Of a stretch of 64,000 bases of DNA, positions 8,953 through 59,533 are shown in pieces. Made by a program: the position numbers and the translations under genes. The DNA lies in the IMG/VR virus record IMGVR_UViG_3300029893_000003, positions 9,110-73,109 of that record; one strand, 5' to 3'. Position 1 is the first letter of the stretch, and each line of letters begins with the position of its first letter. The stretch is from a virus. The notes under the pieces are model-generated. The model saw only the letters and a program-made list of their open reading frames with translations. It had not been told where the DNA came from and ran no database searches.

Positions 8953-9147
8953 ATGACAGCTAAACAGTTTTTATATGTGTTTATTGTTTTGCTTTTGATC
9001 ATAGCGTTTTTAGTGGGCATTACTGATGTTATTTTTGCTATTCTAGGATTCATGTTTGGCGGTGCTTTTATTATTTTAGACAGACAAGAAAAGATATGGG
9101 TTATGCGAATCAACACAGATGTTCACGAAAGGGGTAACGATGATTGA
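8953..9147 (+). CDS. Small membrane protein
   Basis: RBS-led 64-aa hydrophobic ORF downstream of the promoter. Confidence 0.6.
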   Translation: MTAKQFLYVFIVLLLIIAFLVGITDVIFAILGFMFGGAFIILDRQEKIWVMRINTDVHERGNDD

Positions 9148-48321: not shown

Positions 48322-50067
48322 ATGAGAAAATTGTTCCTGCTTTTGGTGGTGTTGTTTCTGTCGGGTTGTGTGGGTGGTCGCTATGTGTTCTACCAATCAC
48401 CAGACAATCCCGAACAGATTCCAACGGGTGTTTATGAGGATGCAGGGGTTGAAGTAGAAATACGTAATCTAGAAACAAACACACCGTACCCGACCTACAC
48501 GTCCTATCCAACTTACACCCCCCTGCCCACTTACACCGCCCAACCAGGACTGCCAGAGCCTACACAGGACAGCGGGATCACACCTTCGCCTACTAGTAGC
48601 GCTGGCAAGGCATGCCTAGCGACAAGCAGCACGGCCCTGAATTTACGAGCCGATCACACGGTTAATTCTGCGATCATCGACAACATCGATCCCGGCGTGC
48701 GAATGGAAGTTCTCAGCATTTGGGTGATCCGTGACGTAACCGACGAATGGCTTAAGGTCCGAGCGGAGACGCGATCCGGCGTCGTGCGTGAGGGGTGGAT
48801 ATTCCGAGGTTCAAGCGTCTATTTCGGGGTTGATGACACTTTGGATTTGTGTTGGGACGTGCCGCTCGATGGCCCTGGGGCGAACGTGCCGACGCCCGCG
48901 CCGACCGCGACACCCGTGCCGGGGCCGACCTGGACACCGGTCCCCACCGGCCCGGCGCCAACACAGTGCACGTATGTGCATCCGTCCGCCACAATGTCTA
49001 TCCGCTCGACCTGGAGCACGTCCGGCACGCGATTGGGATTACTGCCGCCGAACACGCGCGTTGTGGTCGGGCATATCTATCCAGACACTGCGCAAGAGCG
49101 CTGGGCGTATATCACCTATCAAGGTCTGACGGGCTGGGTGGCGGTGCGCGCGGGCGGTATCGAGTACGGGCGCCTGGAGGGTAACTGCGCACAAGTGCCG
49201 CGCTATCAGCCCCAGGTGCTAGTTGGCCCGCACCTGCTGGTTGGCGTGCAGGGTGATGTGGTGGGCTATGGCTGGGGCACGCTCAAGTGCCTCAACCACA
49301 CCGAGGCGCTGTGTTTGGCCGCCAAAGCCGCGCGCCCGCAGACGGTCATCGTCTACCGCACGCTGCACGTCAGCGATGGCATGCGGGACTGTCCCAGTTA
49401 CAATGAGTGGCTCAACCCGGACGACTGGTACCGCAAGGTCATCCCATTTTGGCCTGCTGGGTTTGACTACTACGAGGTCATCAACGAGTGCTGGCCGCCA
49501 TCGATGCGCGTGATGGTCGATTTTTCTATCCGCATCGCGCAGCTGGCGGCACGGGATGGGCGCGCCATCCTGGCCTTTAGCTGGTATCCGGGTGCGCCGG
49601 AGATTGCGGACTGGGATGTGCTATACGACTACCTGGCCTGGGCCGACGCCAATCCGCTGCCAGACGGGCGGCATCACGGCATTGCGCTGCACGCGGCGGG
49701 ATACGCGCCAGCGGACCAGGTGCCGCCGGGGTCGTGGGTCAACGACCCGTGGATCGCGGGGCGGCACGAGTTGGTCAACGCGCGGCTGTTGCAGACCAAA
49801 AACTATTCGCTCAAACAGTTTCAAGGGCCAATCGTCATCACCGAACTCGGATGGGATGATGGCTACCAGAGTACCTCTATGGGCGCGCTCGGCTGGGACT
49901 GCGCGGCATACGGGCGCGCGGTGGCGCGCACGATAGAGGTGCTGTCGCAACAGGGTCTTGTAGACGGGTTTCACGTGTGGAACTTCGGCAGCGGCGGGAC
50001 AACGAAGTGGGTGGACCTGTCGCGGTGCCTGCCGCAGATTGCGGCGGCAGCGGGGGGAACGGCATAG
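48322..50067 (+). CDS. Lipoprotein with PT-rich linkers, two SH3b-like domains and a C-terminal glycoside-hydrolase-like TIM barrel
   Basis: Lipobox LSGC; PTYT repeats; ALNLRAD and SIRSTW...GLTGWV SH3b; YYEVINEC and VITELGWD acid/nucleophile-like motifs. Confidence 0.7.
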   Translation: MRKLFLLLVVLFLSGCVGGRYVFYQSPDNPEQIPTGVYEDAGVEVEIRNLETNTPYPTYTSYPTYTPLPTYTAQPGLPEPTQDSGITPSPTSSAGKACLATSSTALNLRADHTVNSAIIDNIDPGVRMEVLSIWVIRDVTDEWLKVRAETRSGVVREGWIFRGSSVYFGVDDTLDLCWDVPLDGPGANVPTPAPTATPVPGPTWTPVPTGPAPTQCTYVHPSATMSIRSTWSTSGTRLGLLPPNTRVVVGHIYPDTAQERWAYITYQGLTGWVAVRAGGIEYGRLEGNCAQVPRYQPQVLVGPHLLVGVQGDVVGYGWGTLKCLNHTEALCLAAKAARPQTVIVYRTLHVSDGMRDCPSYNEWLNPDDWYRKVIPFWPAGFDYYEVINECWPPSMRVMVDFSIRIAQLAARDGRAILAFSWYPGAPEIADWDVLYDYLAWADANPLPDGRHHGIALHAAGYAPADQVPPGSWVNDPWIAGRHELVNARLLQTKNYSLKQFQGPIVITELGWDDGYQSTSMGALGWDCAAYGRAVARTIEVLSQQGLVDGFHVWNFGSGGTTKWVDLSRCLPQIAAAAGGTA

Positions 50068-50218: not shown

Positions 50219-50389
50219 ATGGAACGCATATTAGAAGTGGATCGTAAATGGAAGGAACGAAACGAGCGTATTCTAATGAGGAATGGACCGACTGCATTAG
50301 ATGAGTATCTAAGGCAGGAAGCGAGGCGTATAGAATCTTTGCGTAGGGAAATGGAAAAGCGTGGGCTTGAGGTTGATCAAGTCACTTGA
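50219..50389 (+). CDS. Small hypothetical protein (MERILEVDRK...)
   Basis: ATG coincides with the IS target motif. Confidence 0.5.
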   Translation: MERILEVDRKWKERNERILMRNGPTALDEYLRQEARRIESLRREMEKRGLEVDQVT

Positions 50390-50414
50390 CAATTAGTTAG
50401 TCTTGTGGTATGCT
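50386..50414 (+). promoter_or_regulatory. Sigma70 promoter
   Basis: TTGACA-17-TATGCT with extended -10 TG. Confidence 0.75.
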
Positions 50415-50452
50415 GGTCTAAGATAGGCCAGCATTTTTATTAGGAGAATGTT

Positions 50453-50599
50453 ATGAAAACCCTACTCGAATGGGTGTTAGGCATTTCTGTATGTTCGGTA
50501 ATTCTGTATGCTGGCTACGAGAATCCAAATAGTTATGTAATGTTGGGAATGGTTGTGACTGTGGTGGTGTCCAGTCTTTTGCTTACCAAACGGGCCTGA
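50453..50599 (+). CDS. Small membrane protein (48 aa), stop codon overlapping the mini-tmRNA 5' end
   Basis: AGGAG RBS; MKTLLEWVLGISVCSVILYAG...LLLTKRA*. Confidence 0.55.
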   Translation: MKTLLEWVLGISVCSVILYAGYENPNSYVMLGMVVTVVVSSLLLTKRA

Positions 50600-50679
50600 C
50601 AGGTTTCGATGGCGGGGAGTCTTGCAGTTGGGTGTTAGGCTCCCCGCTAGACCTACGTTCAATTCGTAGCAGGTCCACC
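50592..50679 (+). ncRNA. tmRNA-like RNA consisting only of the tRNA-like domain (no mRNA-like domain)
   Basis: Acceptor GGGCCTG/CAGGTCC with G3.U70 and A73; D-loop-like ACAGGTTTCGA; helix TGGCGGGGAG/CTCCCCGCTA; GAC linker; T-arm CTACG-TTCAATT-CGTAG. Confidence 0.75.
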
Positions 50680-50819
50680 CGTATCCTTATCAGTAAGGAG
50701 AGATGCAGAAGAAGATACCCGTACTGCGATGCGGGGTAAGCTGATTGACATCTTACAGGCAGCGCGAGAACACGGCTATGTCGTGGCTGTGGGTGGCGCT
50801 AAGTTCTAAGGAGAGCAGC

Positions 50820-51089
50820 ATGGTAATCGTCATGGTAATGAAGGGAAAGCCCGTACAGTATTTCTTGTATGAAGATCAGGGCGCAGCCGAAGATTGGGTA
50901 CGGGATAGAAAACGTGCCCTATTAGGGACACTGGTAGAGGATTGGTTGATCCCTACAGACTATGAAATCTGGAAGAAACGGGGTGATTTTCTTTTCCTTA
51001 CTGATAAGGAAGTTGATGAATTGTGGCCTCGGTTTGGTAAGTATTTCTCAGAAGACTTTATCATTCAGACAGCGGAGATTGTAGGATAG
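50820..51089 (+). CDS. Hypothetical protein
   Basis: AAGGAG RBS before 50820. Confidence 0.6.
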   Translation: MVIVMVMKGKPVQYFLYEDQGAAEDWVRDRKRALLGTLVEDWLIPTDYEIWKKRGDFLFLTDKEVDELWPRFGKYFSEDFIIQTAEIVG

Positions 51090-51090
51090 G

Positions 51091-51441
51091 ATGCAAATAA
51101 AAATTGTGCGGGTTGGTGCAGAGCCGTGTACTATTGAGGCACAAGTGAAGGGAGACTTTGCCTATCATCGAACTTACATTGAGGGTAAGGGAACCAGCCA
51201 TCGACAACACGACTGGTCAGTAACCTATGTTCCTAGTGGTCGCCTAGTTTTTCGTACAAAAACAAAGGCAGCGGCAAAGACTCTTGTAGATATGTTACAG
51301 CCTCTAGAATTACAAGATATTTTCACAGAGGATGAGGTACTCAAGAACGAAATTCGTTTACAGTTTTATAACATCATGAACGAGGCGCGAAAGAAGTTCC
51401 CTGTCGCGTTGGGTAGTGGTCCTTTTTATCCTGCTAAATAA
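51091..51441 (+). CDS. Hypothetical protein
   Basis: Coupled ORF. Confidence 0.65.
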   Translation: MQIKIVRVGAEPCTIEAQVKGDFAYHRTYIEGKGTSHRQHDWSVTYVPSGRLVFRTKTKAAAKTLVDMLQPLELQDIFTEDEVLKNEIRLQFYNIMNEARKKFPVALGSGPFYPAK

Positions 51442-51451
51442 GGAGAGGGTA

Positions 51452-51607
51452 ATGATGGTTGTGATCGTTTTAGGAGCGATTGTTGTCTATTTTGTAGCGG
51501 TCTATTTGTTTGTGTTGCGCTCACGTGATGGGGTCATTAATCTGTCTTTGCAAGAGTTGGATGAGTGGTTTAATGGCATCATTGATGACAACTTCGGGGG
51601 GCGCTAA
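51452..51607 (+). CDS. Small membrane protein
   Basis: AAGGAG RBS; TM helix. Confidence 0.55.
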   Translation: MMVVIVLGAIVVYFVAVYLFVLRSRDGVINLSLQELDEWFNGIIDDNFGGR

Positions 51608-52161
51608 TGAGTAAACTACTTGATCCTCAAGAGTTTTGGGAGTCTATTCGTAGTGAAGAGAGTGCAGCGTGGCCTGTTGTGTGTGTTGATTTGAATGGTG
51701 TGTTGGATATTCCCTCTCGTTGGAACGGGAAGGTAGAAAAGTATCCAGTTGCACCAGGGGCCTCGCTGTTTCTTTCCCGGTTGCGTCTTCATTTTAATAC
51801 GGTCGTTGTATTTACAGCTATTATGCCTGTTGAATTTGCTATAGAGTGGTTAGAAGAACACGATTTACTAAAGTATGTGCATTTCGTTACTAACTACAAA
51901 ATTCCCGCTGCTGTATATATTGACGACAAAGCCGTTTGTCATTACGGAAATTTTGATGATACGCTACAGCGTGCTATTCGTCATGTTCCGCATTGGCAAA
52001 ATCATAAACGCTTAGAGCGACCACAAGAGGTAGAACAATTTATTTCTATCTACGACAAAAAATCCCAAATCACTGGTGGGCATAACGTTTTAGAGTTTGC
52101 TGTTGTTCAGTACATTAGACAGCTAGAGGGAAAATTACATGACTTGGAGAGCGGTATATGA
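51607..52161 (+). CDS. HAD-superfamily hydrolase (5'-nucleotidase-like; motif I variant DLNG)
   Basis: VCVDLNGVL, VFTA, KIPAAVYIDDKA. Confidence 0.75.
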   Translation: MSKLLDPQEFWESIRSEESAAWPVVCVDLNGVLDIPSRWNGKVEKYPVAPGASLFLSRLRLHFNTVVVFTAIMPVEFAIEWLEEHDLLKYVHFVTNYKIPAAVYIDDKAVCHYGNFDDTLQRAIRHVPHWQNHKRLERPQEVEQFISIYDKKSQITGGHNVLEFAVVQYIRQLEGKLHDLESGI

Positions 52162-52738
52162 CAAGATTGGCTGTTTAGAAGAAGACGAATTACTATGGAA
52201 ACTAATCCTACATGAAAAGGATCGGTTTATGTGTACACTGGCACAAGCGTCGGATTTGTTGGAAGGGGAGCGGTATCTCGATCATACAGCACATGCAAAG
52301 GCTATGATGTATGCTGTTAATGAGGGGGAACAAGGAAAGCCACTAACTTTGTACACGGTGCTTAGAATACACCAACTTGCCTTTCCGTATGGTGGTCACT
52401 TTAGGAATTGTACTCCCATTATCTTTAATAGTTCCTTTGAGCCACCTGCCCCACCTATCGCTCCCCATGTACAGGATTGGATCAAACGCTATTGGGATGA
52501 TCCCCTTGCAAATGCAGACATAGAGTATTATGATATAGTTTTAGCACATATTCGGTTTGAAGAAATCCACCCGTTTGTAGACGGGAACGGTCGGGTGGGA
52601 CGGATTCTGAACAACTACATGTGCGCGTATGCGGGGCTTCCTTTGTTGAATATCTGTGATAGAGAAGCCTATCTAGACTGTATGCGTCGTGGGCATATAC
52701 AAGATTTAGTCCAGCTTTTTAGAAGGAGTGCGGTATGA
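52139..52738 (+). CDS. Fic/Doc family protein
   Basis: Canonical HPFVDGNGRVGR motif. Confidence 0.9.
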   Translation: MTWRAVYDKIGCLEEDELLWKLILHEKDRFMCTLAQASDLLEGERYLDHTAHAKAMMYAVNEGEQGKPLTLYTVLRIHQLAFPYGGHFRNCTPIIFNSSFEPPAPPIAPHVQDWIKRYWDDPLANADIEYYDIVLAHIRFEEIHPFVDGNGRVGRILNNYMCAYAGLPLLNICDREAYLDCMRRGHIQDLVQLFRRSAV

Positions 52739-53037
52739 GAACCTATGAAGAGAATAGACTAATTGCAATCAATATGGCAGGTATCATTTGGTTGCGAACG
52801 TTATTAAGTGACGTAGAATCTGATACAGATTTAATAAATAAAATGTTCAAAGATTTTCTAAAAGGTTTTTATTTATCGCTAGCCACAAGCGAAACATTGG
52901 ATATTGCCGAAGAACGTTTGGACGGGGTTTTTCAGTATATTGAATTAATGGGCGTAGATGAATCTGTACTTGAGGGGATGCAGAAAACCCTTAACCAGCT
53001 ACAAGAATGGCTAACCATACCGGAACTAGATGAATAG
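52735..53037 (+). CDS. Hypothetical protein
   Basis: Coupled to Fic. Confidence 0.6.
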   Translation: MRTYEENRLIAINMAGIIWLRTLLSDVESDTDLINKMFKDFLKGFYLSLATSETLDIAEERLDGVFQYIELMGVDESVLEGMQKTLNQLQEWLTIPELDE

Positions 53038-53335
53038 TGTGAGTGATTTTCTTTACTACTTATTACTTATTTTAGACTTCCTTATGCCAAAACGAACTGA
53101 CAACTACCAGGAATATCTACGATCTTCTAGGTGGAGAGGCATAAGGAAAAGGGCCTTGGAACGGGCGGGTTATCGGTGTCAGCTATGTAACTCGCCCACC
53201 AGACTACAGGTACACCATCGGACGTATGATCGACTAGGAAATGAACGGCTTGATGATCTTATTGTGCTGTGTCAAAAATGTCATACAGCGTTTCATGTAC
53301 ACAGGAAATTGCACAAACCTAGAAAAAGGGCTTGA
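53030..53335 (+). CDS. HNH endonuclease
   Basis: YLRSSRW...CQLC...LQVHH...LIVLCQKCHTAFH. Confidence 0.85.
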   Translation: MNSVSDFLYYLLLILDFLMPKRTDNYQEYLRSSRWRGIRKRALERAGYRCQLCNSPTRLQVHHRTYDRLGNERLDDLIVLCQKCHTAFHVHRKLHKPRKRA

Positions 53336-53360
53336 CAAAGGTTTTGAGGTATGCTATACT
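53332..53360 (+). promoter_or_regulatory. Sigma70 promoter for the ~350-nt ncRNA
   Basis: TTGACA-17-TATACT with extended -10 TG. Confidence 0.85.
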
Positions 53361-53367
53361 GTGTACA

Positions 53368-53716
53368 GTGAGACAGAAAGCTGCGTGGGTGGCGGCTAGG
53401 AAACCTTCAGTCGAATTGAGACGAGTTTTATTGTTAGTCCTTAATGCCGCCACCGACGAAGTTGAAGGGCTTGAAGTAGAGGCAACCAAACATTCATAGC
53501 GTACACTCTCCTTTTGGTTAGCCGATGAGAAAACTTTATCCTTAAAGGTTGCCTCTACTTCAAGCCTTTGCGACGGGCTTTGACCTAGACAATAGGAGTC
53601 CCCCTTTGTGCAGAGGGGAGTGCCGTAGGAGCGCAGGTAAAGGTTGCACAGCCATCCTACCTCTTGATGGTGGGCAGGAGTAAATATAATTTCATACTTA
53701 TATCCCACCTTTTTTT
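53368..53716 (+). ncRNA. Candidate structured RNA with two pseudoknots, class unassigned
   Basis: Bounded by the promoter and a GGTGGG/CCCACC-U8 terminator; stems GGTGGCGGC/GCCGCCACC and a ~23-bp stem around GGCTTGAAGTAGAGGCAACC; pseudoknot candidates TATTGT/ACAATA and TGTGCA/TGCACA. Confidence 0.65.
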
Positions 53717-53718
53717 TC

Positions 53719-53747
53719 TTGACAAGTTAAATGAAGTGTGTTAAAGT
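53719..53747 (+). promoter_or_regulatory. Sigma70 promoter for the Y RNA-Ro60 operon
   Basis: TTGACA-17-TAAAGT with extended -10 TG. Confidence 0.75.
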
Positions 53748-53749
53748 AA

Positions 53750-53818
53750 GGCTAGCGAACCGAAAAGGCGTGGTTATCCATGATCGAATACTCCACCCTT
53801 GTTTACTTGTTCGCTAAA
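53750..53818 (+). ncRNA. Y RNA-like RNA 1
   Basis: TAGCGAAC-CGA...CTT-GTTCGCTA, matching the Ro60-binding stem geometry (C-CGA / CUU-G) of Y RNAs. Confidence 0.7.
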
Positions 53819-53822
53819 ACAT

Positions 53823-53905
53823 GCGTGTCCAGGACTGGCAGGCGTTGGCCCTAAGCGAAGTTCAAGCCAACATCACCTGCGGGGGTTCAACTCCCTCGAC
53901 ACGCT
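53823..53905 (+). ncRNA. Atypical tRNA-like element (acceptor and T-arm, rudimentary D region, elongated anticodon-position arm)
   Basis: GCGTGTC/GACACGC acceptor; GGGGG-TTCAACT-CCCTC T-arm; GCAGG/CCTGC plus GTTGGC/GCCAAC arm. Confidence 0.6.
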
Positions 53906-53906
53906 C

Positions 53907-53979
53907 TATCGAGCCGAGGGGTTCAGGGTTACCTACATAGCGAATGTAAACCAATTCCCTACCCGCACCTTGCTCGATA
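53907..53979 (+). ncRNA. Y RNA-like RNA 2
   Basis: TATCGAGC-CGA...CTT-GCTCGATA stem with the same motif. Confidence 0.7.
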
Positions 53980-53992
53980 AAAACTAGTAATG

Positions 53993-54114
53993 ATGTGAGC
54001 CGAAGGAACTTGGTTATCGACTTGTAATCGACGGTTGCGGGTTCGAATCCCGTCCCTGCGGGGTAGCTTAATGTGGAAAAGCAGTAAAAAGCCAATTCCG
54101 TCCCTTGCTCACGT
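53993..54114 (+). ncRNA. yrlA: YrlA-type Y RNA with a permuted tRNA-like module
   Basis: GTGAGC-CGA...CTT-GCTCAC Ro stem enclosing TCGA-CTTGTAA-TCGA arm, T-arm GCGGG-TTCGAAT-CCCGT, loop-closed acceptor CCC-TGC-GGG and D-arm-like TAGCTTAATGTGGAAAAGC; adjacent to the Ro60 gene. Confidence 0.8.
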
Positions 54115-54227
54115 AATGTATGGACCGTTTTTGTCCGACTAGATAGGCGAGATAACAGAGTGGTTGGTTCCTGTTATTACTATCTGTGTCGGGCACATCG
54201 TCCGACACTTTTCATAAGGAGAATCTA

Positions 54228-55793
54228 ATGGATTACGGAAAGTATTTTAACACCCGCAAGACCCCTCAGAGCCAACCCCTTCCCAATCAAGTGCAGAATA
54301 ACGCTGGTGGTTATTCTTTTCAGGTCGATAAGTGGATGTTGCTGGATCGCTTCCTGATCCTGGGTACAGAGGGTGGATCGTATTACGTGGGGGAACAAGC
54401 TCTCACCGTTGAAAATGCGCGCGCTGCCTACGAATGTATTCAGGAAGACGGTATTCGTGTTGTGGATCGCGTAGTAGAAATTTCTGTTCAGGGACGTGCA
54501 GCTAAGAATGATCCTGCTCTTTATGTTCTAGCTATGGCAGCAGGGACAGGTAATCTAGCCACGCGACGGTACGCTTTATCATATCTTTCTGAGGTAGCGC
54601 GTACTGGAACACATCTATTTACCTTTGTTGATTACGTGCAGCAGTTTCGTGGGTGGGGTCGTGCCCTGAAAAATGCAGTTGGTAACTGGTATCTGGATCG
54701 CCCGATTGAGAAGTTGGCGTATCAGGCTATCAAGTACCGCAACCGTAAGGGCTGGACTCACGCTGATGTGTTGCGTAAGGCACATCCAAAAGCCCACAAC
54801 CAGCTTCAAAATGATCTGTTCAAGTGGATTGTAGATGGTGACGTGCCTAGTATCCAACTGGTACGGGCATTTGAGGCCGCTAAGACCGCTTCGGAAGATG
54901 ATCTTGTAGCTTTGATTGCACAGTATGATCTTCCTCGCGAAGCCTTGCCTACTGAAGCCCTGAACAGCCCGAAGGTATGGCGTTCTTTGTTGGTTCACAT
55001 GCCGTTGATGGCCCTGGTTCGTAACCTGGGTAAGCTGAGTAATGTTGGCGTGGTCGCTCCTGGTCGTTGGGTGGAAATTGAACACACGGTTGGGATGCTG
55101 ACAAACCGCCAAAAAATTCAGCAGTCTCGTATTCACCCTATTCAGGTACTTGCTGCGCTGACTACCTATTCTCAGGGACGGGGCGTACGTGGCAGTTTAA
55201 CGTGGGATGTGGTACCGGAGATTGTTGCAGCACTAAACACAACCTATGAAATGGCGTTTGATAACGTAGAGCCGAGCGGAAAAAAGACACTGGTCGCGTT
55301 GGACGTGTCCTCGTCAATGACATGGGGCGAAGTGTCTGGTGTTCCGGGCTTGACTCCGCGTGTGGCGGCGGCTGCAATGGCAATGATGACCATCAAGACC
55401 GAACCATATACCCTGCCGTTGGCGTTTTCTACTGAGCCTACGCCGATGAATCTGAATAAGTCTATGTCGCTGAATGAAGTAATCCGTGAGATGGAGCGTA
55501 TTCGGTTTGGTGGTACGGATTGCGCCTTGCCGATGCTATGGGCACTAGAGAACAAGGCTGAAGTTGATCTATTTGTGGTGTATACAGATAGCGAAACGTG
55601 GTACGGAAAGATTCATCCTGTTCAGGCATTGCAAATGTATCGTGAGCAGATGGGCATTCCCGCAAAGTTGGCTGTTGTAGGGATGCTGGCAAATAAGTTT
55701 TCGATTGCCGATCCGAACGATCCTGGTATGCTAGATTTTGTGGGCTTTGATACATCTGTTCCACAGGCACTAGCCGAATTTGCTAAGATGTAG
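54228..55793 (+). CDS. rsr: Ro60/Rsr TROVE-domain RNA-binding protein with vWA domain
   Basis: NNAGGYSF, LDRFLILGTEGGSYY, KYRNRKGWTHADVLRKAHP, MPLMALVRNLGKL, MIDAS DVSSSM, GGTDCALPM, YTDSETW, DPNDPGMLDFVGFD. Confidence 0.95.
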   Translation: MDYGKYFNTRKTPQSQPLPNQVQNNAGGYSFQVDKWMLLDRFLILGTEGGSYYVGEQALTVENARAAYECIQEDGIRVVDRVVEISVQGRAAKNDPALYVLAMAAGTGNLATRRYALSYLSEVARTGTHLFTFVDYVQQFRGWGRALKNAVGNWYLDRPIEKLAYQAIKYRNRKGWTHADVLRKAHPKAHNQLQNDLFKWIVDGDVPSIQLVRAFEAAKTASEDDLVALIAQYDLPREALPTEALNSPKVWRSLLVHMPLMALVRNLGKLSNVGVVAPGRWVEIEHTVGMLTNRQKIQQSRIHPIQVLAALTTYSQGRGVRGSLTWDVVPEIVAALNTTYEMAFDNVEPSGKKTLVALDVSSSMTWGEVSGVPGLTPRVAAAAMAMMTIKTEPYTLPLAFSTEPTPMNLNKSMSLNEVIREMERIRFGGTDCALPMLWALENKAEVDLFVVYTDSETWYGKIHPVQALQMYREQMGIPAKLAVVGMLANKFSIADPNDPGMLDFVGFDTSVPQALAEFAKM

Positions 55794-55818
55794 GGGGAGT
55801 AATCCCCCTTATTAATAA

Positions 55819-55891
55819 GGGACTGTAGCTCAGCGGTTAGAGCAACCGGCTCATAACCGGTCGGTCACAGGTTCGAATCCTGTCAGTCCCA
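55819..55891 (+). tRNA. tRNA with CAT anticodon (probably Ile2/lysidine type; elongator Met not excluded); CCA not encoded
   Basis: GGGACTG/CAGTCCC acceptor; D-arm GCTCAGCGGTTAGAGC; anticodon arm ACCGG-CTCATAA-CCGGT; T-arm ACAGG-TTCGAAT-CCTGT. Confidence 0.9.
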
Positions 55892-56479: not shown

Positions 56480-59400
56480 ATGCCTGAGCCTACACAAGAA
56501 CAAGTTTCTATTATCAACTTCCCTGCTGATGAACATCTAGCTGTTGAAGCGGTCCCAGGTAGTGGGAAGTGTCTGGGTAAGGATACCCCCGTTATGTTAT
56601 TTGATGGGACGGTTAGAGCGGTACAAGATATAGTACCCGGCGATTTGTTAATGGGACCAGACTCAAAGCCTCGCACTGTTTTGTCTACTTCCGTAGGGTA
56701 TGGAAATTTGTACAAAATTGTACCTACCAAGGGAGATGCGTGGATATGTAATGAAGAACATATCTTAACATTGGTCTATTCGGGAAAGGAAGAAGTTGAA
56801 GACGTATCTCTGTCAGAGTATTTTACTAGGTCAAGAGCATATCGTGAAAGGGCTAAGCTGTTCCGTGTTCCTGTGGACTTTCCTAAAAAAGAACTTCCTG
56901 TTGATCCTTACTTGTTGGGAGTTTGGTTAGGGGATGGACATAGAGACAACCCAATAATCACTAATAAAGAACCTATTATACAAGAGTATTGCGTAGCAAA
57001 GGCTAATGAGCTAGGAATATCTGCTATTGTAGTAGATGCTCCTGAAATAAATAGCCAATATATTTATCTAACAAACAACTACAAAGGAAATCCGTTACGC
57101 AAATTTTTTGCTTCTTGTGTTACTGATGATGGAGAAAAATTTATCCCGCAGGACTATCTTACCAGCAGCAGAGAAGATCGTTTAGATTTGTTGGCAGCCC
57201 TATTAGATACAGATGGATATTATAATGGTGGGTCCTTTGAAATTACTACCAAATATAACACCCTGAAAGACAACATATTGTTTCTAGCCAGAAGTTTGGG
57301 CTTTGCTGCCTATGCAAAACGCAAAGTAGCTGCTATCAAATCTCTAGACTTTTCAGGAGAATATTGGAGAATATCAATTAGTGGGGATGTAAGTATTATT
57401 CCCAATAAGATTCCTCGTAAACAAGCGTTTCCGCGACGACAGATTAAAAATGTGTTGCGTACAGGGTTTTCTGTGGAAGGCATAGGGAAAGGAGCATATT
57501 ACGGATTTACACTAGATGGTGATGGCAGGTTTTTGTTGGGTGACTTTACTGTAACTCACAATACGTTTACCATTGCCTACCGAGTAAAGGCTTTCTTGGA
57601 TCAGGGGGTTGATCCTGCTAATATTCTGGTGTGTACGTTCTCTCGCTCACAGGCAGAAGATATGTCTCTCCGTATTCTATCCTTCCTAAAGCAGCACTAC
57701 CCTACTATCGGCCTATCTGCTTTAGCGAATGGGTTTGGCGAGGGCATAGGACAGATTACGACCATCCACGCTACAGCTAGACGTATGCTAATCCACTATC
57801 CCGAATACACTAAGTATTCAGAACTACAAGTTGCTCCTACATGGAAAGAGCGTAGCATTATTGAAAACTTTGTGGAAAGAATTAACTGGACGTACTACAA
57901 TGTCCGAGAGAAAAAAGAAGCTCTCGTTGGCTATCAGTCAATTTTATTCTACATTAACAACGCTAAAAATGCGGGTGTCAATCTTAATGTAGCAGAACTG
58001 ACTGAATACTACCTTAGTACGGGATTGGGTAGAGAACACGTTCGTAACTTGGTGTCTACCACCCTGCACTACCAACAAGAACTACAACGCAACAATATGT
58101 GGACGTTTGCTGATATGCTGTATGAGTGCGAGAAGCAGCTTCGAGAGGATGCGGCTTTCCGTTCGTACTGGCATGATCGGTTTACTCATGTGTTGATTGA
58201 CGAAGCACAGGACACTAATGGACAGGCTATGCGAATTGTCCATCTCCTTAATCCTAGTAGTATTACTGTGGTGGGAGACGCTGATCAAACGTTGTACGCT
58301 TTCAATGGAGCAACACCAGATACCAACCTGCGTACAGGTTTTGATCAGCGGTTTGGCGGCGGTCGTCTTTCTATGTCAGTTAATTTCCGTAGCCAACCTA
58401 ACATCCTGAAACGAGCAGGGCTTCTTATTCGTCATAACTATGACAGTGAAACGATCAAATATATGAAAAACCTACAGCCACGCGAGGGTGTAGCTGTTGG
58501 AGATGATGTAACCTTTTCGTGGTATCAAGACGCCGAAGAAGAGGCGCGAGGAGTTGTTGCTAATCTTGTTCAATACATGGAAGAAGGGCATGTCCCTGGT
58601 GACTTCTTTATCATGTCGCGCACAAACGCGCAGATGGCGTACTTTGAACTAGAACTTTTAAACCACAATCTGCCCTTTGTGAACTTGGGCGTATCTAGTT
58701 TCTTTAACCGTCCGGTGCCGCGTATGCTGCTTAACTACATGCGGCTGGCTGTTGATCCGACTGATTGGGAAGCTTTTGATATTGTCCACAACGTAGCTTC
58801 TTGTTGGATGACTAACAACCAAGGCAAACCAATCAACACACGGTTCTTAGGACAGAAATTCCTAGAGAGACTTTCCCGCACCAATGGCGATGGAACCCCT
58901 ACAAACTCTCTGGAAGAGGCGTATGCCCATAAATACGATACTGATCAACGTGGGTGGACACGCTGGCAGAGGGGTGTTCAGGACTTGCAGGATACTATGC
59001 AGGCTCTTGCTGGATATGAAATGTCGCACAACGCAGGATCGTTGGCCTCTGAGATTACACGGATTGTAGTAGATAAGTGGATTGAAAACGAGTTTGGTGT
59101 TGAAACAGACGCTTCTGACGGTGCGCGGGATGATCTTCAGGTGGTGTTGGCGTTGGCTAAACGGTTTACAGTGCGTGATTTTCTTGAGTATGTGCGCCAG
59201 CTAACCGCTACTAAAGACATTAAGCCAGAGAATATGACGGACTATATTCTAATTGGCACAATCTATAAGTTTAAGGGTTTGGAGCGTCCGATAGTTTACG
59301 TGGTTGGTGCCAGTCAGGGCCTACTACCACACCGTTTCAGTTTGGGGGAAACCCCCCCGACCGATGGCTTGCCCATTCCCTCTACCGGAAGTTTGTGGGA

Positions 59401-59533
59401 TGAGCGGAACGTCATGTATGTGGCAGTAACCCGCGCTAAAGACGTATGCCACATTTCGGGTATTCAGAACTGGGCAACTATCAAAGACCCGCTTGAGCCT
59501 TCTATCTTCGTACAGGAAATGGAGTTGTTGTAA
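56480..59533 (+). CDS. UvrD/PcrA-like SF1 helicase interrupted by an intein
   Basis: AVPGSGK|TFT Walker A, LIDEAQD, VGDADQTLYAFNGA, NFRSQ, TIYKFKGLE, ERNVMYVAVTRAK. Confidence 0.9.
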   Translation: MPEPTQEQVSIINFPADEHLAVEAVPGSGKCLGKDTPVMLFDGTVRAVQDIVPGDLLMGPDSKPRTVLSTSVGYGNLYKIVPTKGDAWICNEEHILTLVYSGKEEVEDVSLSEYFTRSRAYRERAKLFRVPVDFPKKELPVDPYLLGVWLGDGHRDNPIITNKEPIIQEYCVAKANELGISAIVVDAPEINSQYIYLTNNYKGNPLRKFFASCVTDDGEKFIPQDYLTSSREDRLDLLAALLDTDGYYNGGSFEITTKYNTLKDNILFLARSLGFAAYAKRKVAAIKSLDFSGEYWRISISGDVSIIPNKIPRKQAFPRRQIKNVLRTGFSVEGIGKGAYYGFTLDGDGRFLLGDFTVTHNTFTIAYRVKAFLDQGVDPANILVCTFSRSQAEDMSLRILSFLKQHYPTIGLSALANGFGEGIGQITTIHATARRMLIHYPEYTKYSELQVAPTWKERSIIENFVERINWTYYNVREKKEALVGYQSILFYINNAKNAGVNLNVAELTEYYLSTGLGREHVRNLVSTTLHYQQELQRNNMWTFADMLYECEKQLREDAAFRSYWHDRFTHVLIDEAQDTNGQAMRIVHLLNPSSITVVGDADQTLYAFNGATPDTNLRTGFDQRFGGGRLSMSVNFRSQPNILKRAGLLIRHNYDSETIKYMKNLQPREGVAVGDDVTFSWYQDAEEEARGVVANLVQYMEEGHVPGDFFIMSRTNAQMAYFELELLNHNLPFVNLGVSSFFNRPVPRMLLNYMRLAVDPTDWEAFDIVHNVASCWMTNNQGKPINTRFLGQKFLERLSRTNGDGTPTNSLEEAYAHKYDTDQRGWTRWQRGVQDLQDTMQALAGYEMSHNAGSLASEITRIVVDKWIENEFGVETDASDGARDDLQVVLALAKRFTVRDFLEYVRQLTATKDIKPENMTDYILIGTIYKFKGLERPIVYVVGASQGLLPHRFSLGETPPTDGLPIPSTGSLWDERNVMYVAVTRAKDVCHISGIQNWATIKDPLEPSIFVQEMELL
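56570..57562 (+). mobile_element. Intein with LAGLIDADG endonuclease (331 aa) in the helicase P-loop
   Basis: Starts CLGKDTPV, ends VTHN followed by Thr+1; LGVWLGDG and LAALLDTDG motifs. Confidence 0.95.

Follow-up and report, generated by a model that had tools for sequence, protein, structure and literature searches.

We analysed a window of 64,000 nt from the IMG/VR virus record IMGVR_UViG_3300029893_000003 (positions 9,110 to 73,109), in which the stretch at 50386-55891 holds a tmRNA mimic reduced to its tRNA-like domain (TLD), an operon encoding a HAD-superfamily phosphatase-like protein and a Fic-domain protein, a structured RNA, an array of three Y RNAs, a Ro60 gene and a tRNA gene with the anticodon CAU (Table 1). 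The viral record comprises 82,174 bp with 45% GC, its assembly ends overlap, and CheckV puts its completeness at 95%. All genes of the region lie on the plus strand, from a gene for an SH3-domain protein (581 aa, 48322-50067) to one for an intein-containing UvrD-type helicase (56480-59533). The original prediction had taken the stretch for a single counter-defence island of translation and RNA rescue, built largely from RNA mimics. Its inventory is borne out: every component, including the three Y RNAs, the tRNA-like element, the tRNA and the structured RNA without assignment, was recovered at or near its proposed position, three near-consensus promoters are present at 50386, 53332 and 53719, and the tmRNA TLD, the Y RNAs and the tRNA-like elements are real, in keeping with the proposed mimic character.

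The stretch is a hypervariable accessory region that starts directly past the SH3-domain gene. This gene has a GC content of 61-64% (window 48500-50000) against ~45% in the genome, and homology to relatives stops at its 3' end; in four relatives with an SH3 protein of 59-63% identity, homology is lost at ~50045, and the cargo that follows in them is unrelated (a reverse transcriptase, sugar-modification genes or reverse-strand genes). A search of IMG/VR for close relatives with a Ro60 peptide pattern found none, and Logan and JGI contigs were used in its place; relatives and other loci are given L numbers here. One close relative, L001, shares ~94% nucleotide identity with our phage, and 97% for Ro60. 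Counted over the whole window, the promoter class TTGACA-N14-TGN-TANNNT, which has a TG extended -10 element, was observed eight times compared with 0.07 expected by chance. Promoter P1 overlaps a terminator-like hairpin of the preceding gene (50410-50434). At the far end of the region, the intein of the helicase includes a homing endonuclease with Hom_end_hint and Hom_end domains, and the 686-aa orthologue of L001 (L001:4108-6168) is free of it.

Table 1 Features of the region, in coordinates of the 64,000-nt window (ORF, open reading frame; HMM, hidden Markov model; MIDAS, metal ion-dependent adhesion site)
Feature	Position	Strand	Characteristics or basis
Promoter P1	50386-50414	+	TTGACA-17-TATGCT, TG extended -10
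48-aa hydrophobic ORF (putative gene)	50453-50599	+	AGGAGA ribosome-binding site; no homologue found
TLD-only tmRNA mimic, 88 nt	50592-50679	+	structure search, fold z-score, HMM
Three small ORFs, function unassigned	50820-51089, 51091-51441, 51416-51607	+	ORF list, relatives
Capless HAD-superfamily phosphatase-like protein, 184 aa	51607-52161	+	family profiles, structure model
Fic-domain protein	52139-52738	+	Pfam Fic E 1.5e-12; AMPylase-type motif HPFVDGNGRVGR
100-aa ORF, function unassigned	52735-53037	+	translationally coupled to Fic; conserved in L048
HNH endonuclease, free-standing, 101 aa	53030-53335	+	Pfam E 1.9e-5
Promoter P2	53332-53360	+	11/12 consensus positions, TG extended -10; precedes structured RNA
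Structured non-coding RNA, ~350 nt	within 53332-53718, 3' of P2	+	folding; U-rich tail
Promoter P3	53719-53747	+	TTGACA-17-TAAAGT, TG; ahead of Y RNA array; kept in L001
Y RNA 1 (Y1)	53752-53817	+	short, no tRNA-like domain; terminal stem AGCGAAC/GUUCGCU
tRNA-like spacer (tentative)	53823-53905	+	7-bp acceptor stem GCGUGUC/GACACGC and T arm; weak support
Y RNA 2 (Y2)	53906-53980	+	short; terminal stem AUCGAGC/GCUCGAU
Y RNA 3 (Y3), YrlA-like	53993-54114	+	Ro-binding stem and permuted tRNA-like domain (T arm, closed acceptor-like hairpin, D arm)
Terminator-like hairpin with U run	54186-54208	+	between Y RNA array and Ro60 ribosome-binding site
Ro60, 521 aa	54228-55793	+	TROVE and vWA domains, MIDAS residues conserved
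tRNA, anticodon CAU	55819-55891	+	76.7 bits; CCA not encoded

The tmRNA mimic has a 7-bp acceptor stem (GGGCCUG/CAGGUCC) with the G3:U70 pair and an A73 discriminator, a helix 2 of 10 bp closed by a 17-nt loop, and a 3' half in which GAC is followed by a 5-bp T stem with the loop UUCAAUU and then by ACC, with a folding z-score of -4.05. The D-loop analogue of the element at 50592-50679 reads GGUUUCGA, with GGUUUCGAUGG occupying the place of the D-loop analogue of tmRNA. A structural search detected one such element in the 82-kb genome and 0.0 per shuffled genome (50 shuffles), and an HMM of 13 independent and distinct viral TLD-only elements returned the mimic as the sole significant match in the genome (E 0.001, model positions 7-81). 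The element was called neither by ARAGORN nor by Rfam, the tmRNA models of which scored 9 bits or less, near noise; this silence is expected because the tag ORF and the pseudoknots are absent. The tRNA-like domain is thus retained and the mRNA-like domain (resume codon, tag ORF, pseudoknots) missing, and judged by its sequence the mimic belongs to the 'no CDS' class and is not a functional tmRNA. The UGA stop codon of the 48-aa ORF upstream (50453-50599) sits within the TLD acceptor stem (50592-50599), and RNase P cleavage at the 5' end of the TLD would strip the ORF of this stop codon and create a non-stop mRNA, the fate of which would, in a variant of the reading of selected juxtaposition given below as improbable, be set by whether the mimic has blocked tagging.

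Similar elements are present in other viruses. A degenerate pattern of the TLD architecture matched 38 stretches in IMG/VR (L009-L046). In 21 of these, which measure 79-84 nt, the acceptor and T stems are perfect and G3:U70 is present; the 21 comprise at least 13 distinct sequences, with 27 invariant columns in common. Eight of the 21 elements lie within 1 kb of a tRNA, and six are no more than 100 nt away from a tRNA gene; of these six, five border arrays of 20-28 tRNAs. RNAalifold recovered the T arm alone from the 13 viral elements, the 5' ends being out of register, and a sequence HMM was substituted for a covariance model. Scanning metagenome and genome collections for the host with the 5' TLD motif returned very many taxa, mostly without a matching 3' end, and no host signal. 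Mycobacteriophage DS6A is the sole published phage precedent of a TLD-only RNA (PMC4131195), and its RNA inhibits tmRNA, probably by titrating SmpB (PMC4131195, PMC11915505; citing Mao et al. 2009); only nine 'standard, no CDS' sequences are listed in the 2025 tmRNA database (PMC11915505). The DS6A element was not found in its GenBank record by annotation or regular expression, and our comparison with it is therefore made without direct alignment. DS6A also encodes an RtcB-like RNA ligase (L005:1301-2503). A separate 81-nt element located 1.5 kb upstream of a viral Ro60 gene (L061:6459-6539) combines an acceptor stem containing G3:U70 with a T arm and encodes its CCA, but has no D-loop analogue of the tmRNA type.

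Downstream of P3, the order is Y1, tRNA-like spacer, Y2, Y3, terminator-like hairpin, Ro60 and tRNA(CAU), and the hairpin, from its sequence and place, is likely an attenuator. Ro60 is intact and typical, with a TROVE domain (E 4.7e-38) followed by vWA_Ro60 (E 4.4e-67), a match to Deinococcus radiodurans Rsr (2nvo) at E 2e-129, and residues of the MIDAS region that are invariant across an alignment of 27 sequences; its nearest counterparts among the genome records of cultured phages are only 44-46% identical. Y1 and Y2 carry the signature CGA(A/G)G...GGUUAYC...CUUG, which is common to the Y RNAs preceding Ro60 in three related contigs and is conserved in eight sequences from four genomes, all located no more than 0.5 kb upstream of Ro60. 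In the 7-bp terminal stem of the Y RNAs, 100% of the cells are paired, six of the seven pairs are changed on both sides, and none of 500 shuffles scored as high. When a sequence-only HMM of the Y RNAs of relatives was run on the window, its best match was Y2, followed by Y3, and Y1 was missed. At gathering thresholds Rfam found the tRNA alone, Y1 and Y2 had no Rfam match, and in relaxed scans the TLD, the structured RNA, Y1 and Y2 scored no higher than noise. Y3 reached 33 bits against Rfam YrlA (RF02553; gathering threshold 69, E 3.6e-5), covering only model positions 27-81 with the T arm, the acceptor-like hairpin and the D arm, so that it is YrlA-like, with a score short of formal membership of the YrlA family. 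The Y RNAs of L002 and L003 match RF01656 with 37-42 bits, which we take to be the family of nematode Y-RNA (stem-bulge RNA) homologues. The tRNA-like spacer lacks a normal D or anticodon arm, and a different, shorter tRNA-like element stands at the same place in L001. In their predicted folds, the Y RNAs display the Ro-binding bulge motif (consensus GNCGAAN0-1G; PMC4201824), in genes that adjoin Ro60.

The association of Ro60 and Y RNAs with tRNA or tmRNA genes recurs in unrelated phages, and to this extent the original prediction is supported. tRNA arrays contain or adjoin Ro60 in phages of Streptomyces, Mycobacterium, Microbacterium and Gordonia, with the order Ro60, tRNA, tmRNA, tRNA array in Gordonia phage Boopy. 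The tRNA(CAU) of our phage is, to judge by G1:C72, of the elongator type, with Met or Ile2 as candidates. Its counterpart in L001 (L001:2823-2912) contains a 17-nt insertion that forms a long variable arm, and the T stem is changed compensatorily, with the flanks and the anticodon arm the same; the tRNases of retrons and Septu are known to target variable loops (PMC13096335). The structured RNA forms a 27-bp near-perfect hairpin (z = -6.05), and its 3' part is 95% conserved in L001; an exact 22-mer from it had no match in IMG/VR. The sole long ORF over this RNA, of 129 aa on the minus strand, matched no PHROG family and was judged spurious.

The ORFs between 50820 and 53335 are tightly packed or overlapping, the Fic gene overlapping the HAD-like gene by 23 nt. 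The gene order o116-o63b-HAD-Fic-o100-HNH is retained in L048 and the overlapping HAD-Fic pair in L049, where Fic is 76% identical; the last two of the three small ORFs keep their place upstream of HAD-Fic in both contigs, and the first is relocated in L001. Pfam confirmed the Fic and HNH assignments. The Fic protein conforms to the AMPylase-type motif HxFx(D/E)GNGRxxR, has a candidate N-terminal inhibitory motif (SDLLEG), and has the FICD and SoFic adenylyltransferases as its nearest solved structures, and the HNH protein is probably a homing nuclease. The proposed HAD phosphatase stands as regards fold and family membership and needs qualification in that the protein itself has no Pfam match and a deviating motif I. 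With 409 homologues, its assignment rests on family matches and a structure model: among 85 family members, Pfam matches are to NIF (35), Hydrolase (29) and HAD_SAK_2 (21, best E 4e-7), and the AlphaFold model (predicted local distance difference test, pLDDT, 90) gave a Foldseek list led by HAD phosphatases at weak E-values (best 5e-3), with MDP-1, SCP1 and a nucleotidase-like protein on top and the phosphatase of T4 Pnkp also listed (probability 0.97). Motif I (VCVDLNGVLD) retains the nucleophile Asp and has Asn in place of Asp at +2 (DxN, not DxD), together with an Asp at +6. Across the 85 members, D28 occurs in 84 (with one gap), Lys98 (K98) and D106/D107 are invariant, and residue +2 is D in 48 and N in 36; members with N at +2 invariably have D at +6, and most of those with D at +2 have N at +6 (DxDGVLN in 40, DxNGVLD in 36). 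This near-perfect swap suggests that the catalytic acid has moved. The HAD superfamily fold and motifs I-IV are thus predicted to be present, and the DxD general acid/base is not. Fusions to class V aminotransferases occur in part of the family.

The neighbourhood analysis proposed as a check of the island was carried out, and its components do not co-occur beyond the immediate clade. Our Ro60 census covered the best 80 of 362 Ro60-positive IMG/VR loci with flanks of up to 8 kb (1.1 Mb), many contigs being fragments. In profile searches of these 80 loci Fic was found in none and the HAD family in one, ARAGORN called no tmRNA, an atypical TLD-like element with G3:U70 occurred in one, and 17 had a tRNA no more than 3 kb from Ro60. 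A tblastn search of 50,697 phage records gave no match for the HAD-like protein and 41 for Fic, nearly all of them in Streptococcus and other non-Ro60 phages. TROVE was encoded by none of the 21 viral records with a TLD-only element. Recurrence is limited to three pairings, two of them of Ro60 (with Y RNAs, and with tRNA or tmRNA genes) and one of HAD with Fic; this last pair stays together only in this clade. Even between close relatives the arrangement changes: L001 has an HNH_3 gene (490-990) inserted between Y2 and Y3, the interior of its Y1 is diverged, and the block at 50702-51087 of the window has moved downstream of Ro60. Of the single counter-defence island, the parts and the recurrent place of Ro60 beside tRNA or tmRNA genes remain, but its status as a co-inherited anti-defence unit is not supported.

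The capacity for RNA repair is likewise incomplete. No match to Rnl1 (PF09511), Rnl2 (PF09414), RtcB (PF01139) or an AAA_33 kinase (PF13671) was found in the 95%-complete genome, SmpB was not found in the genome either, and tblastn with the Rnl1 and Metallophos proteins of relatives gave no match in it. The phage therefore has no repair pathway of its own, and a lone HAD enzyme cannot 'heal' RNA ends for ligation by a phage pathway, contrary to the role the original prediction had considered for it.

Overall, we favour the view, with a probability of roughly 0.6, that the region combines separate RNA decoy or adaptor modules directed against host RNA quality control (SmpB-tmRNA and PNPase) with an unrelated effector operon, shuffled by homing nucleases. 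It is favoured because both analogues that were tested experimentally, the DS6A TLD and the Ro60-Yrl particle of Thermus phage phiLo, interfere with host RNA quality control instead of repairing RNA; the phiLo particle binds and attenuates host PNPase (PMC12135203). The anatomy, the promoters, the family memberships, the mosaicism and the co-occurrence statistics were observed directly. At least four separate modules (A-D), most with their own host-type promoter, would make up the region. In module A, the TLD mimic, after processing and CCA addition by host enzymes, would most likely bind host SmpB and possibly alanyl-tRNA synthetase (AlaRS), so that host trans-translation would be blocked or diverted, as shown for the DS6A element. 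The core of module B, the translationally coupled pair of capless HAD phosphatase and Fic AMPylase, is, by analogy, probably a host-modifying effector, and module C would be the lineage-specific structured RNA. The Y array, Ro60 and tRNA(CAU) of module D may form a Ro60-Y RNA particle that, by analogy with its tested counterpart, engages host PNPase and structured or damaged RNAs, the module also supplying one tRNA. Free-standing HNH nucleases and the intein would move the modules among related phages; in T4, SegB homing drives the inheritance and amplification of tRNA regions (PMC13096335).

Several observations weigh against this separation, and most of them lend support to an integrated island in which the TLD rescues ribosomes, the HAD protein heals ends, Ro60 and its Y RNAs deal with damaged RNA and the tRNA stands in for cleaved host tRNA, together defeating anticodon nucleases or mRNA interferases. 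In L003, Ro60 is followed after 0.7 kb by the HAD-like gene, in L047 a tRNA(CAU) of 88% identity stands directly upstream of Fic, and in both L002 and L003 an Rnl1 RNA ligase and a Metallophos phosphoesterase homologue are encoded no more than ~5 kb from Ro60; linkage that survives rearrangement in this way may reflect a shared function of the modules. The extent of the census, with its short flanks and many fragments, also limits what it says against an island, and the lack of TROVE in the 21 TLD-only records shows independence, not absence of enrichment, being compatible with moderate enrichment because Ro60 occurs in <1% of phages. All parts, moreover, fall within 5.5 kb of an early region with three strong promoters, and phage tRNAs, RNA ligases and TROVE proteins have been put forward as a counter to host attacks on translation in jumbo phages (PMC7824862). 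The general theme is thereby covered; the specific combination is new, as had been supposed, but its status as a unit is unsupported. We nevertheless consider an integrated island unlikely: ligase, kinase and SmpB are missing from the genome, other Ro60 loci are all but devoid of Fic and HAD-like genes, TLD-only elements occur without Ro60, and the HAD family matches NIF-type protein phosphatases (35 of 85) more than the RNA-repair HAD domain. An RNA without the mRNA-like domain cannot, moreover, resume translation, and its DS6A analogue inhibits rescue (PMC4131195). As Ro60-neighbour linkages recur with changing content, the Ro60 neighbourhood in this clade collects RNA-related cargo of phage-specific composition. 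Mutual replacement of the HAD-like gene and Metallophos in relatives was considered and rejected, L003 having both. Ahead of the tRNA(CAU)-Fic pair of L047, a gene-free stretch of 745 nt (L047:338-1083) with three TTGACA-type promoters may encode further small RNAs.

A narrower version, in which the HAD-like protein of module B acts as a 3'-phosphatase with the Ro60-Y RNA of module D and a host ligase on cleaved tRNAs, Fic being unrelated cargo, seems very doubtful to us. The capless HAD type usually acts on macromolecular substrates, and the T4 Pnkp phosphatase in the Foldseek list, the HAD_SAK_2 matches and the homologue near Ro60 and Rnl1 in L003 all fit such a role, but Foldseek E-values are weak with other phosphatases on top, the HAD-like gene is tightly coupled to Fic and not to Ro60 in three genomes, and the aminotransferase fusions count against it. 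Removal of the 3'-phosphate would also hinder host ligation of the RtcB type, as is established RtcB chemistry. Equally little weight is given to decaying or neutral cargo, in which the TLD would be what is left of a formerly complete phage tmRNA, and the additional Y RNAs and the spacer would be duplicated remnants without present function. The hypervariable setting and the near-noise Rfam tmRNA scores agree with decay, and two features of the TLD, which also weigh against an active mimic, point the same way: its gene ends in ACC followed by C and not in ACCA, so that the encoded CCA tail which the 2025 tmRNA database requires for the TLD-only class is absent (PMC11915505), and it has GAU at the position where the 13 comparators have GAC. 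However, CCA addition after transcription is plausible because the tRNA of the phage is also without encoded CCA, the acceptor and T stems of the TLD are perfect with G3:U70 kept and a near-consensus promoter upstream, at least 13 distinct viral sequences retain the 27 invariant columns, and the Y stems covary and are fully paired across relatives. Selection for the juxtaposition itself, with the TLD sequestering SmpB, Ro60-Y RNA capturing PNPase, the tRNA-like pieces decoying tRNA-directed nucleases and HAD-Fic modifying a translation factor, is improbable, although slightly less so than end-healing or decay; if true, it would mean that RNA mimics disarm host RNA quality control or abortive-infection pathways together.

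Whether phage 'anti-defence islands' can be recognised from gene juxtaposition alone is the wider question raised by this phage, and the answer of the census is no. TLD-only mimics extend beyond the single known phage, with at least 13 distinct versions in viral metagenome contigs that often edge large tRNA arrays, and phages may therefore commonly block or divert trans-translation. In addition, a compact phage with a three-member Y array and a tRNA-like spacer is a convenient model for Y RNA processing and loading on viral Ro60.

Compared with known systems, the mimic resembles the element of DS6A, which is likewise a phage RNA of ~80-90 nt with a G3:U70 acceptor stem, a D-loop analogue and a T arm, and without tag frame or pseudoknots; in contrast to what is described there, helix 2 of our mimic is closed and longer, a terminal A is not encoded, and the mimic stands alone behind its own promoter with the stop codon of an upstream ORF inside its acceptor stem. 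T4-type tRNA repair (Pnkp and Rnl1) and phage RNA-repair cassettes (PMC7824862) are paralleled by L002 and L003, with Rnl1 and Metallophos near Ro60, and the HAD fold found here is that of the T4 Pnkp phosphatase domain, but unlike in T4 the ligase and kinase are absent and the pathway is incomplete. As with T4 SegB (PMC13096335), HNH-type nucleases lie next to or within the array of RNA genes (window 53030-53335; L001 490-990), which is mosaic among close relatives, although the nuclease is of the HNH and not the GIY-YIG type and its homing is putative. Like Boopy, Streptomyces phage Yaboi and Mycobacterium phages Alice and Sparky, our phage has Ro60 within or beside a cluster of stable-RNA genes, but in contrast to them the set is minimal, consisting of one tRNA and, at a distance of 3.5 kb, a TLD-only mimic, with a protein operon in between. 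Finally, as in phiLo with Ro60-Yrl1/Yrl2 (PMC12135203) and in the bacterial Rsr-YrlA/Yrn1-PNPase system (RYPER; PMC4201824), at least two Y RNAs with the CGAA bulge precede Ro60, and as in YrlA systems one of the Y RNAs carries a tRNA-like domain; unlike these, the array described here, as read from its genes, comprises three Y RNAs and a free tRNA-like spacer behind one promoter, with a likely attenuator before Ro60.

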